IMG/VR virus record: IMGVR_UViG_2563366802_000014
Reading direction: 5' to 3' (one strand)
Length of the DNA: 39,173 bases
Source: a virus
Taxonomy: Duplodnaviria > Heunggongvirae > Uroviricota > Caudoviricetes
Shown: one piece after another, positions 30,476 through 33,871 of the stretch
How positions within the stretch are numbered: the stretch's first letter is position 1
Layout of the letters: each line of letters opens with the position of its first letter
Made by a program: the position numbers and the translations under genes
The notes under the pieces: generated by a model
The model's database searches: none
Told to the model about the DNA's origin: nothing
Seen by the model: the letters and a program-made list of their open reading frames with translations, nothing else

Positions 30476-30820
30476 TCAGAACTCTTCGATGTTCCAGCCA
30501 CCACCTGCTTTCTTTGGTTTAACCGTTACCCCGATGATTCGGAACGGATACTGATCTGCGGCGACTTTGGTTTTCACCCTGGCGTCGTCGGTCCAGAAAC
30601 CTTTCACTTCGTGCAGTTCCATCTCGCCGGTGGCGAGCATCACAGCAAAATCGGGCGTATAGAACGTGTTGTCAGCTAACCGTAGCTTGATACCCTCGAA
30701 TCGATACCAGGCGATTTCCCCTGCACGTTTACGAAGCTCAAGGTGCTGGCAATACGCAGATTCTGTTTTGTTCATCTGGCCTGTTTTGAGTCGACCAAGA
30801 GCCTGTATCTGTTTTCTCAT
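30476..30820 (-). CDS. Small PD-(D/E)XK-like nuclease-fold protein (114 aa), possible junction-resolving or replication-associated nuclease
   Basis: Motif TPDF...GEMELHEVKG consistent with a D...E.K nuclease core; own promoter region flanked by two operator sites. Confidence 0.45.
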   Translation of the reverse strand: MRKQIQALGRLKTGQMNKTESAYCQHLELRKRAGEIAWYRFEGIKLRLADNTFYTPDFAVMLATGEMELHEVKGFWTDDARVKTKVAADQYPFRIIGVTVKPKKAGGGWNIEEF

Positions 30821-30937: not shown

Positions 30938-31738
30938 TTACTTGATAAATCCTGCCGCCTTTCCCCGCCTGTATTCCTCCATCAGCCACTGCGCCGGTGT
31001 TATTCCCCCCAGGGTAGCGGCGTTAGGCATACACCCGAAACTTCGCCCTGGTGGATGGTAAACGTCTCTCCCTGTGTCCGGAGGCGTACTCATGGGTTCT
31101 GGCTTTGCCTGTATGCTGATCACCGGATCGGGTATCTGCTGTCCGGAAGCCACCTTTTTCGCCCAATCATCGAGCAGCCTGCGCGCGTGTTTCTCAACCT
31201 CAATCTCGCTAAGCTGGCGCTGATACATTGCACGGCGGGTATCACATACGACCCAGTACATAACCGGATGTCGCCACGGGAATCTTTCGGGACCACCAGG
31301 ATATAAACTTTTTTCCTTGCTGTACCGGTGAAACTCCGCCATCACATCGTCAATGGTGACGCCAAGAACCATCTTGCTGTCTTTACACCACTTGATGAAT
31401 TGCCCTGGCGACGGCCAGAACGGAGACTCACTGGCGCGGGCGTGGCGCATACCAGCAGAAACCTGTTCACGGGTTCGGATCCCCCCTTCGGCAAACGCAG
31501 CAATCCACTGCTGTTTTGCAGCGACTTCCTGCTCTGGCGTCTTCAGGTTGGTTACCACTGCCGCCGGAAACAGTTGTTTCAGCTGTTTGAAAAGGGCATC
31601 AACAAGCCTCTCTGCTGACATGTTCACCACGTTGTCATTGTTGGTGTACTGATGCTCATAACCTGACATGCGAGAAAGGGCTTCTCCGTCACGGTTTTGT
31701 ATCGCGGTAAAAACGTTGTTCACAAGAAATCCTCCCAT
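30938..31738 (-). CDS. Replication protein P-like (helicase loader)
   Basis: Segment LFPAAVVTNLKTPEQEVAAKQQWIAAFAEGGIRTREQVSAGMRHARASESPFWPSPGQFIKWC aligns by eye with phage lambda P. Confidence 0.75.
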   Translation of the reverse strand: MGGFLVNNVFTAIQNRDGEALSRMSGYEHQYTNNDNVVNMSAERLVDALFKQLKQLFPAAVVTNLKTPEQEVAAKQQWIAAFAEGGIRTREQVSAGMRHARASESPFWPSPGQFIKWCKDSKMVLGVTIDDVMAEFHRYSKEKSLYPGGPERFPWRHPVMYWVVCDTRRAMYQRQLSEIEVEKHARRLLDDWAKKVASGQQIPDPVISIQAKPEPMSTPPDTGRDVYHPPGRSFGCMPNAATLGGITPAQWLMEEYRRGKAAGFIK

Positions 31739-32535
31739 GCTTCAGGGCTGTTCCAGTGCGGAACGTTGTTATCAGGTAATGTTGATTGCTTCTGTCTGCT
31801 AATCTGCAGCCGCCTTGCCAGCTTCTGCTCCCACTGTGCCTGATGGTATGCCTTACCCTCAGCCATCCAGTAAATTCTGAACTCTGCAAGTTCCTGTGCC
31901 GTTGGCAGACTGTCCAGGTAGATCCCCTGCAATGAGCTTTTCCGAAGAAAGTCATCTGATGGCTGCCATTGTTCATGCATGACAAATTTGCCTAATTGCC
32001 CTGGCCCACCAGGAGGAACAAAGTTATTCATCACGGCGTTGTTTGCGCCGGGGTCATGAGGCACAGAATCCCCGCTTTTTGTCCTGCTCTCCCTCTCTTG
32101 GTTAAATGACTGGTTATATGACTGGTTCTGGATCCCGTTTTTGGGATCATTCAACATCCCGTTTTTGGGATCATTCAACATCCCGTTTTTGGGTATATTC
32201 CCGTTTTCGGTAACATTACCGTTTTCGGGTTCATAACCCCCTTCCCGGTTGCCTTTAATGTTCCCGTTTTTGGTTATATTAAGAGAGAAAACCCGCACTC
32301 TTTTCGTCGCTCCCTTTCTCTCTCCGGTATCTGAAATAAGCCCCATTTTCATGAGCGATATAAGCCCGGCCTGCACGGTTTTTTTATTCAGGCAAGTGTC
32401 TTTAACGAGGCGTTCTATGCTGGGGTAGCAGAGGTTATATTCATCGGCTCTGTCAGCCATCGAGAGCAGTATGAGCTTTAATGACGAGCTACCTGGATCT
32501 GTCTCCCAGGCCCAATCTGTTGCATGTCTGCTCAT
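31720..32535 (-). CDS. Replication initiator, O-like, with embedded origin iterons
   Basis: Position between Cro-like and P-like genes; internal direct DNA repeats encoding PKNGMLNDPKNG; N-terminal DNA-binding-like region. Confidence 0.65.
   Translation of the reverse strand: MSRHATDWAWETDPGSSSLKLILLSMADRADEYNLCYPSIERLVKDTCLNKKTVQAGLISLMKMGLISDTGERKGATKRVRVFSLNITKNGNIKGNREGGYEPENGNVTENGNIPKNGMLNDPKNGMLNDPKNGIQNQSYNQSFNQERESRTKSGDSVPHDPGANNAVMNNFVPPGGPGQLGKFVMHEQWQPSDDFLRKSSLQGIYLDSLPTAQELAEFRIYWMAEGKAYHQAQWEQKLARRLQISRQKQSTLPDNNVPHWNSPEAWEDFL
32095..32290. repeat. Origin-like iteron array inside the O-like gene
   Basis: Tandem repeats ATCCCGTTTTTGGGATCATTCAAC (two to three full copies), further CCCGTTTT(C/T)GG variants, and TGACTGGTT duplicated upstream. 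Confidence 0.7.
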
Positions 32536-32550
32536 GATTAATCTCCGCTA

Positions 32551-32751
32551 TCAGCTTGAATGTTGTGGGGAGGAATTAATCATGATCTGCTTAATCTCTG
32601 CCCTGATACGACGGTTTGATTCCATGGTGCACTCAACACAGTGTCCGTTGTAAACCCAGCGTTCACTGTCATGTCCGTGCTTACATGTTTTTCCGGTGTA
32701 GTAGCGTTTAAGTCCGCGCTTTGCGGCATCAATACGTGTAATGATTTCCAT
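32551..32751 (-). CDS. Small Cys/His-rich protein (66 aa), possible zinc-binding regulator
   Basis: Start reassigned to ATG 32751 (MEIITRID); motif CKHGHDSERWVYNGHCVEC; sits where cII-like genes occur in lambdoid maps. Confidence 0.45.
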   Translation of the reverse strand: MEIITRIDAAKRGLKRYYTGKTCKHGHDSERWVYNGHCVECTMESNRRIRAEIKQIMINSSPQHSS

Positions 32752-32831
32752 GGTAAGCCCTGTTATTAGTATTGGGATTACGGTCATTTTGTGCTGACAC
32801 AAAAAAAAGATCAACCAGATTTGGTTTTTTA

Positions 32832-32846
32832 TTACCTTTGAGGTAC
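32832..32846. promoter_or_regulatory. Operator-like site TTACCtttgaGGTAc downstream of the Cro-like gene
   Basis: One mismatch to the motif; adjacent hairpin AGACCGCC..GGCGGTCT. Confidence 0.4.
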
Positions 32847-32901
32847 GAATAGATATGAAAAGACCGCCGGATGGCGGTCTACAGAGGGTTGTAGCTGGAT
32901 A

Positions 32902-33132
32902 TCATGAGTAGAAGAAGTATGCCAGTTCTGCTTTTGAGCGCAGCCATTGTCTTGTTTTACAGGCTTTAAAAAGCCCATTCATCAATACTTTACCTGGCAT
33001 TTTGCGCTTACCTGTTAAGTGAGTCTGGATATAGTGACTCGTCGTTCCGGCTTCCTGTGCGAAGGCTTCACGCTCATCCGGAGTAAGTGCAAGCCAGTGC
33101 TTTTTGAAATCGAAATGTCCGTTATCGCTCAT
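32902..33132 (-). CDS. Cro-like small HTH regulator
   Basis: 76 aa, divergent from the repressor gene across an operator-bearing intergenic region; HTH-like segment AFAQEAGTTSHYIQTHLTGKRK. Confidence 0.55.
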   Translation of the reverse strand: MSDNGHFDFKKHWLALTPDEREAFAQEAGTTSHYIQTHLTGKRKMPGKVLMNGLFKACKTRQWLRSKAELAYFFYS

Positions 33133-33168
33133 AGCTATTGCCTGATATTTATTTCAGATAATAAATAT

Positions 33169-33231
33169 TCACCCATAAGGTAACAAAAATCAAGGATAGT
33201 TACCTATGAGGTGCATTTACCTGTTGGGTAA
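33169..33231. promoter_or_regulatory. Divergent promoter region with three operator-like sites (OR-like)
   Basis: TcACCcataaGGTAA (33169-33183), TTACCtatgaGGTgc (33200-33214) and perfect TTACCtgttgGGTAA (33217-33231) between the Cro-like and repressor genes. Confidence 0.65.
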
Positions 33232-33286
33232 TATTGCTTTAAATTGAATCATCTACTGATTCATATATGAGGCGATTTTTCAGAAA

Positions 33287-33871
33287 ATGAAAAGTATCCA
33301 GGACGTCCGCAGGCAAAATCTCAACGACTTGATCGACCGTGAATTCAATGGTGTTCAGACGCGGATGGCAGAAAAACTTGGAACTCAGGCAAATCTGGTA
33401 AACCGCTGGGCTCTTGGCAAGAAGGTTATCGGCGACCAGGTTGCGCGAAAAATTGAAGCTGCCGCCAATAAACCCCGTAACTGGCTTGATATCGATCGCT
33501 CGCTTTCTCAGGAAGGTTTTCAGCCTGTCGGCCCAAGCGATATTGGTCAGCTGGCAGCTCACAACCTGGAACGCTGGATGAGTGAAAGCCGCGACCTTTC
33601 AACTCAGGGAAAACTTCACCGCGCATCCGGCGTCGCCCAGGTGACAATAAGCCGCCTGTTAAACAATGAGGTCAGCGTTTCCATTTCCACCCTGGAGAAT
33701 GTTGCATCTGCATTCGGGCGTCACGGATATGAACTACTGATTCATCCGCATGACCCTGCAACTATCAACTATGACCGCTCGCGCTACGCATTGTTACCTG
33801 AAACAGAGAAGGCAAAGATCGAAAGTTACATTGAATTTGTCATCAACCAGAACGAAAAAAACAAACAATAA
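33287..33871 (+). CDS. Prophage repressor candidate, tandem-HTH protein without recognisable autocleavage domain
   Basis: N-terminal HTH (QTRMAEKLGTQANLVNRWALGKK) and a second HTH-like segment (ASGVAQVTISRLLNNEVSVSISTLENVASAFG); no Ala-Gly / Ser-Lys peptidase signature seen; divergent from Cro-like gene. Confidence 0.6.
   Translation: MKSIQDVRRQNLNDLIDREFNGVQTRMAEKLGTQANLVNRWALGKKVIGDQVARKIEAAANKPRNWLDIDRSLSQEGFQPVGPSDIGQLAAHNLERWMSESRDLSTQGKLHRASGVAQVTISRLLNNEVSVSISTLENVASAFGRHGYELLIHPHDPATINYDRSRYALLPETEKAKIESYIEFVINQNEKNKQ

Follow-up and report, generated by a model that had tools for sequence, protein, structure and literature searches.

The DNA analysed here (the window, 39,173 nucleotides) carries a replication initiator gene and a helicase loader gene that follow each other on the minus strand, beyond a cro-like gene. 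The genes and signals of this region are the following.

30938..31738, minus strand: gene of a lambda P family helicase loader (PF06992, E 1.5e-56; phrog_109, E 2.4e-92)
31720..32535, minus strand: replication initiator gene, 271 aa, with an HTH_36 N-terminus, a repeat-encoding linker (about aa 86-180) and a DnaT-CTD-like C-terminus (aa 180-265)
32861..32880, minus strand: hairpin resembling an intrinsic terminator, in a tR1-like position that separates the cro-like gene from the replication genes
33158..33186, minus strand: possible pR-like promoter ahead of the cro-like gene, recognised only by its match to the consensus

The loader gene lies directly downstream of the initiator gene, whose end is overlapped by its first 19 bases. 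The gene order is repressor (divergent), cro-like gene, terminator, a small conserved gene, initiator and P, and the annotation of phage phiV10 has a cro-like gene and a terminator at the matching places. This order corresponds to the lambdoid early-right layout, and the predicted early operon reads through the putative origin considered below. The DNA of the initiator gene is 97-99% identical to that of phiV10, phiv142-3, EC.W1-9 and others, the phage being phiV10-like (genus Uetakevirus). Just past the P-like gene, a DUF1064 gene (phrog_190, 'Holliday junction resolvase') occupies positions 30476-30820 on the minus strand, and it is found at the same place in phiV10. Between positions 31000 and 33500, neither an Rfam match nor a DnaA box (TTATCCACA, at most one mismatch) was detected.

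Regarding the initiator itself, the whole length of the protein is covered by a match to phrog_1032 ('replication initiation protein', E 8.8e-108). Its Pfam matches are only two, a winged-helix-type HTH_36 domain at aa 18-67 (E 1.8e-10) and the DnaT domain PF17948 at aa 184-252 (E 1.1e-15); the N-terminal Phage_rep_O domain (PF04492) was not found among them. Residues 180-265 align to the C-terminal domain of E. coli DnaT (PDB 9zbt_D residues 85-170, E 6.4e-21), and the DnaT match covers residues 85-170 only, the N-terminal oligomerisation domain and the acidic PriB-binding linker of DnaT being absent. Profile comparison with lambda O (hhalign) gave no significant similarity (probability 2.6%). 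By sequence, the initiator is therefore outside the lambda O family, having neither a Phage_rep_O N-terminus nor a lambda O-type C-terminus. The initial annotation had described an 'O-like initiator': the protein does have the parts of an initiator (HTH_36, the DnaT-type C-terminus and the phrog_1032 match), whereas membership of the lambda O family is contradicted by both Pfam and the profile comparison. An AlphaFold2 prediction from the single initiator sequence had a mean pLDDT of 36 and was unusable, and a five-sequence profile search for diverse homologues returned close E. coli relatives only.

Repeats in the linker-coding part of the initiator gene

The part of the gene that encodes the inter-domain linker, between HTH_36 and the DnaT domain, contains the repeats. 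The core CCGTTTTYGG is present in exactly six copies, all on the plus strand, with starts at 32135, 32159, 32183, 32201, 32219 and 32264 and start-to-start spacings of 24, 24, 18, 18 and 45. These copies are confined to 32135-32273 and the core is absent from the rest of the 39,173 bases, where 0.20 copies would be expected by chance in the whole window and none of 100 shuffles reached six. The longer form CCCGTTTTYGG fits five of the six copies, the remaining one being ACCGTTTTCGG. Tandem Repeats Finder, which the initial annotation had proposed as a check, was run and delimited three arrays; together with the six cores, they bear out the tandem direct repeats that had been noticed inside the coding sequence. 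The arrays, the individual repeat units (referred to as iterons a to f, in gene orientation) and the adjoining elements are listed below.

32132-32193: array of ATCCCGTTTTTGGGATCATTCAAC, period 24, 2.6 copies, 100% matches (Tandem Repeats Finder)
32181-32234: 18-bp array, 3 copies (Tandem Repeats Finder)
32099-32127: 12-bp array, 2.4 copies (Tandem Repeats Finder)
32261..32276, minus strand: iteron a, plus-strand sequence TTCCCGTTTTTGGTTA, the most promoter-proximal, degenerate, 45 bp from iteron b
32216..32231, minus strand: iteron b, plus-strand sequence TTACCGTTTTCGGGTT
32198..32213, minus strand: iteron c, plus-strand sequence TTCCCGTTTTCGGTAA, 18 bp from iteron b
32180..32195, minus strand: iteron d, plus-strand sequence ATCCCGTTTTTGGGTA, 18 bp from iteron c
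32156..32171, minus strand: iteron e, perfect dyad ATCCC-N6-GGGAT, 24 bp from iteron d
32132..32147, minus strand: iteron f, perfect dyad ATCCC-N6-GGGAT, the last in gene orientation, adjoining the 12-mers
32209..32220, no strand assigned: palindrome GGTAACATTACC, one occurrence, formed by the right arm of iteron b and the left arm of iteron c (gene orientation)
32099..32127, minus strand: three 12-bp units, coding strand AACCAGTCATAT AACCAGTCATTT AACCA, the window version of the GAAYC 12/13-mers of the family
32060..32098, minus strand: tract AGAGAGGGAGAGCAGGACAAAAAGCGGGGA, purine-rich on the coding strand, at the position of the A-rich tract of most relatives

The iteron unit is a 16-bp imperfect dyad, which reads (A/T)(T/A)(C/A)CC-(A/G)AAAAC-GG(G/T)A(T/A) on the coding strand. 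Perfect 5-bp arms (ATCCC-AAAAAC-GGGAT) are found in three of the six iterons, those with 24-bp spacing nearest to the 12-mers. The dyad is only partial in the other three, the degenerate copies further upstream, a point that counts against an origin. On the antisense strand, the dyads give rise to terminator-like matches (plus strand, 32142-32185), which were rejected as artefacts. GATC (Dam) sites lie at 32131, 32145 and 32169, in or beside iterons e and f, the one at 32131 being at the edge of iteron f; across the window, GATC is not enriched (154 sites against about 153 expected).

Translation of the minus-strand ORF 31720-32535 through the repeats reads ...NGNVTENGNIPKNGMLNDPKNGMLNDPKNGIQNQSYNQSFNQ... 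and ...ENGNVTENGNIPKNGMLNDPKNGMLNDPKNGIQNQSYNQSFNQ..., and the repeated peptide PKNGMLNDPKNG that the initial annotation had attributed to the repeats is real. As all six iterons share one reading frame in this phage (peptide PKNG), the window taken alone leaves a peptide repeat possible, and the case for a DNA element rests on the relatives.

The stability of the DNA was also calculated with nearest-neighbour parameters. At either end of the iteron array lies one of the two 30-mers with the lowest stability in the gene: the least stable (32253-32283, in the top 1.2% of the window) overlaps iteron a, and the second (32093-32123, in the top 3.1%) covers the 12-mers.

The repeat region in homologous initiator genes

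The homologue set comprised 80 loci from different bacterial species (L088-L167) that share the N-terminal domain at 34-71% identity and include Superficieibacter, Providencia, Vibrio, Acinetobacter, Pseudoalteromonas, Marinomonas, Edwardsiella and Desulfovibrionaceae. Repeats were counted as 10-mers, with one mismatch allowed, over the 360 nt past the HTH domain, for which 73 genes were long enough. At least three copies of a 10-mer were present in 67 of these 73 genes and at least four in 59, with up to 10 copies, compared to a mean of 2.0 in codon-shuffled controls and never more than three in the upstream flank. In 57 of the 67 homologues, the copies were not confined to one reading frame but spread over two or three, the commonest spacings being 17 bp (66 cases) and 22 bp (42 cases), followed by 24 and 18. 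The motif thus keeps its position while its frame changes, which argues for selection on the DNA and not on the peptide. On the evidence of these relatives, the repeats are to be regarded as DNA-level elements, and a purely protein-level repeat is ruled out. The core itself varies by clade (CCAAAAACGG, CCGAAAACGG, CCAAAAGTGG, CCAACAATGG, AATACCCCCA and CGCCCCCGAA), as would fit sites read by a linked DNA-binding domain that diverges with them.

With spacings of 18, 24 and 45 bp against a family mode of 17 and 22 bp, the array of the window has a geometry unlike that of most relatives; spacings that are all multiples of three are found throughout this phage clade and in the homologous locus L088. 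Among near-identical genes of E. coli prophages, the number of 24-bp iteron copies differs, with three (271 aa, as in the window), four (279 aa), five (287 aa) or eight (311 aa), and larger internal duplications occur as well (proteins P0002 and P0003). Polymorphism was examined in near-identical genes of 80 viral contigs, among which 71 were distinct. Three sites were polymorphic in the 96 nt with iterons d-f, compared to 14 in the 48 nt of gene positions 289-336, which hold spacer and degenerate iterons. Polymorphism was lower in the cores than in the spacers, also at third codon positions.

The homologues also bear on the palindrome at 32209-32220. There the initial annotation had singled out an outward-facing half-site pair, GGTAAcaTTACC, as unusual; it is present once, but it is the junction of adjacent dyad iterons and it recurs in relatives. 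Analogous junctions are found in homologues with 17- or 18-bp spacing (GGAACAGTTCC eight times, GGTAACGTTACC four times and GGGAACATTACC twice), and at least four of five positions are complementary at 56 of the 80 adjacent iteron pairs of homologues, the shuffled mean being 3.17. Four positions of GGTAACATTACC are polymorphic among close relatives. The palindrome is a by-product of packing two dyad iterons 18 bp apart and no separate element. It should be noted that a strict test counts against a general dyad, as perfect arms of at least 4 bp were found in the iteron consensus of only 18 of 60 homologues; the dyad symmetry of the family as a whole therefore rests on the softer junction-palindrome test.

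Right after the last iteron (within about 0-70 nt), exactly three GAAYC pentamers are present in 44 of 60 loci. They are spaced by 12 bp (46 cases) or 13 bp (36 cases), and because of this mixed spacing the units have no fixed reading frame. Their density there is 3.76 per 100 nt, compared to 0.22 in the rest of the gene, a 17-fold enrichment, and they stay whichever C-terminal domain the initiator carries. At most loci an A-rich tract comes next, the mean A+T content of 60 relatives rising from 0.55 to 0.65-0.66 at +20 to +60. In the window, the 12-mer copy number is one lower than in phiV10, and a purine-rich tract that contains G replaces the A-rich tract of the relatives, which counts against an origin.

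The same N-terminus and repeats are joined to different C-terminal modules, namely DnaT in seven cases, Phg_2220_C in five and DnaA_N in two (PF11638, best E 5e-9), the majority of homologue C-termini having no Pfam match. The initiator of Edwardsiella phage GF-2 (L003 1501-2343), annotated as 'replication initiation O-like', is a natural chimera. Its N-terminus belongs to the family of the window initiator (about 50% identity) and is followed by three perfect 24-bp copies of ATCCCAAAATTGGGAT with degenerate copies and then by GAAYC 12/13-mers, so that the two genes have these parts in common; by contrast with the window gene, its C-terminus is of the true lambda O type, with 62% identity to residues 156-299 of lambda O (E 2e-67). 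The two parts meet just past the 12/13-mers, and the DNA at the joint, GAGAATTCTGACGAATCCTC, resembles lambda GAGAATTCTGGCGAATCCTC. This position of the joint indicates that the block of N-terminus, iterons and 12/13-mers replaces the lambda block of N-terminus, iterons and AT-rich region as a unit. Such a mosaic pattern has long been known for the O genes of lambdoid phages, and in hybrids of lambda, phi80, 82 and P22 origin specificity goes with the N-terminus.

Epsilon15-like phages (SPN1S), Tyrion and TL-2011b have the DnaT-type C-terminus in common with the window initiator; their N-termini are other ones and window-type iterons are absent from them. The SPN1S gene (L168 1030-1845) has an inverted array, GTCCGC twice and then GCGGAC twice, at about gene nt 345-375 where the window gene has its iterons, possibly an origin of another type in the sister phage group. 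Furthermore, AAACCCCACACATAG (peptide KTPHI / NPTH) recurs past the repeat region of genes with unrelated N-termini, at about gene nt 430-450 in SPN1S (L168) and also in TL-2011b (L170), L131, L133 and L142.

A putative origin of replication and its alternatives

Taken together, these observations suggest, with a probability that we put at about 0.8, that positions 32099-32276 are the replication origin of this phiV10-like (Uetakevirus) temperate phage, lying inside its own initiator gene, in the part that codes for the linker. The repeats would most likely be initiator-binding iterons of a lambda-style origin. The analogy with ori-lambda inside gene O, which the initial annotation had drawn, gains support from the position of the repeats in the linker, the adjacent P gene, the frame-shifting repeats of the homologues and the GF-2 chimera. 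The 12-mers are a candidate DNA-unwinding element, suggested by their position and by comparison with the AT-rich region of lambda and the 13-mers of oriC and RK2; the signal is weak in this phage.

A mechanism can be proposed by analogy with lambda O/ori-lambda and with iteron plasmids, from which protein binding, the unwinding site, the coating of single-stranded DNA, helicase loading and origin activity itself are inferred; what has been observed are the repeats with their clustering, position and conservation, and the modular exchange with a lambda O C-terminus. Dimers of the initiator would bind the dyad iterons through their N-terminal HTH_36 domains and assemble into a multi-protein complex, which would destabilise the adjoining 12-mer region and cause it to melt. 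The tethered DnaT-CTD-like domains, concentrated at this place, may then cover the exposed strand as a mark of the site at which the lambda P-like loader would deliver the host DnaB.

The likeness to ori-lambda, O and P lies in iterons with an internal dyad and an A-tract centre, placed within the initiator gene between a DNA-binding N-terminus and a C-terminus (PMC7466680), and in the P-type loader gene that comes next and the place in the early rightward operon; downstream of the iterons, the window has a candidate for the easily melted region of lambda. The form of the iterons is ATCCCAAAAACGGGAT here and ATCCCTCAAAACGAGGGA in lambda, the half-sites being 3 bp closer here. Lambda has four iterons with spacings of 20, 24 and 23, whereas there are six here, with all spacings multiples of 3; lambda O has a Phage_rep_O N-terminus and its own type of C-terminus in place of HTH_36 and the DnaT-CTD-like domain. 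Lambda has an AT-rich tract of roughly 40 bp, and the three 12-mers at 32099-32127, with about 66% A+T, are far weaker in this respect, which counts against an origin. The Stx phages P27 and 933W resemble the window in having six iterons, of which the less canonical ones are distal from the unwinding region; their two extra iterons are weakly bound and yet needed (PMC7466680). The O proteins and iterons of the Stx phages are close to those of lambda, unlike the initiator family of the window.

Iteron plasmids (RK2 oriV, F ori2, pPS10 and R6K gamma) share with the window an iteron array, a winged-helix initiator and an adjoining unwinding element of repeated 13-mers (PMC4980987, PMC10602881), and a putative element of this 12/13-mer type is present here next to the iterons (the three 12-bp units at 32099-32127). 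In the plasmids, the iterons are found outside the rep gene, as a rule together with DnaA boxes, whereas those of the window lie inside the gene, with no DnaA box within 31000-33500. As for E. coli DnaT (primosomal protein I), a cryo-EM study has shown that its C-terminal domain, to which the last 85 residues of the window protein can be aligned, assembles into filaments on single-stranded DNA and marks the place where the helicase is loaded (PMC13377028), and DnaT and DnaA_N are both tied to helicase loading (PMC13377028). DnaT has an N-terminal domain of its own, where the window protein has HTH_36 and the iteron-coding linker instead.

Other explanations of the repeats have to be weighed against an origin. 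They might matter in the protein only, as a flexible low-complexity linker (PKNG/ENG) that arose by replication slippage and has no function at the DNA level. Such a linker would agree with the single frame of all six window copies at spacings of 24, 24, 18, 18 and 45 and with the number of 24-bp units, which varies freely in the E. coli relatives (271, 279, 287 and 311 aa) as slippage typically produces in a linker that tolerates it. We consider it very improbable nevertheless, as the motif stands in differing frames in 57 of the 67 homologues, mostly with 17- or 22-bp spacing, as a peptide repeat has no need of units with dyad symmetry, and as the lower polymorphism of the cores compared to the spacers extends to third codon positions.

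If the repeats do act as DNA, they could be initiator-binding sites that serve control (titration, handcuffing, autoregulation or exclusion of related phages), with the true origin elsewhere. Plasmid iterons have such control roles (PMC4980987), cloned iterons from lambda ori are inhibitory to related phages (PMC3349717), and the degenerate upstream iterons may play an accessory part, comparable to that of the extra, weakly bound ones in the Stx phages (PMC7466680). However, the window has no other iteron cluster, the succession of the array, conserved 12/13-mers and usually an A-rich tract is the layout of an origin, and the GF-2 chimera puts the block exactly at the place of ori-lambda, which makes control sites an unlikely explanation. 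It is also conceivable, at a probability that we regard as slight indeed, that the repeats are the target of another protein, such as a host factor or one involved in partition or packaging. Nothing specific speaks in favour of such a binder; the repeats accompany the HTH_36 N-terminus in many genera with a clade-specific core, which fits a linked domain better than a conserved host factor, and there is no DnaA box within 31000-33500.

Implications for phiV10-type phages and for the initiator family

An origin inside the initiator gene is of a textbook kind, and the version of this phage family seems to be unannotated: the phiV10 RefSeq record carries no annotation of an origin, and no description of this one was found in the literature searched, an earlier mention being possible. 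Of 5,426 complete E. coli genomes, 424 contain the block of N-terminus and putative origin. The gene is named only 'DnaT-like ssDNA-binding domain-containing protein' in the E. coli records sampled and 'primosomal protein' in phage records, and the database names 'primosomal protein I' and 'DnaT' cover one domain only. Current understanding is not overturned by any of the points made here.

The GAAYC 12/13-mers are newly noticed and might be the only part of interest to replication specialists. We tentatively propose, at somewhat less than even odds, that the HTH_36 initiators form a large family with a conserved two-part origin in the linker-coding DNA, made of clade-specific dyad iterons and a far more conserved GAAYC trio that stays fixed whatever the C-terminal module. 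The trio would then be an undescribed sequence-specific element for unwinding or for recognition of single-stranded DNA, comparable to the 13-mers of oriC and RK2 or to DnaA-trios, and read by the N-terminal part of the initiator or by a host factor. Such a family could extend over phages and prophages of Enterobacterales, Vibrio, Acinetobacter, Pseudoalteromonas, Marinomonas and Desulfovibrionaceae, with the DnaT-CTD, the lambda O C-terminus, DnaA domain I and Phg_2220_C as modules.

For annotation, the finding places the putative origin of phiV10-type phages. Derivatives of phiV10 serve as reporter phages for E. coli O157:H7 (PMC9689055), and an origin within gene 43 would show which DNA is not to be recoded in engineering, while about 240 bp could make a phage-dependent replicon. 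The family would also offer dozens of natural pairs of N-terminus and iterons for studies of the recognition of DNA by initiators. Finally, the fusion of an iteron-binding domain to a DnaT-type domain that forms filaments on single-stranded DNA suggests a testable way in which the helicase-loading site may be marked.
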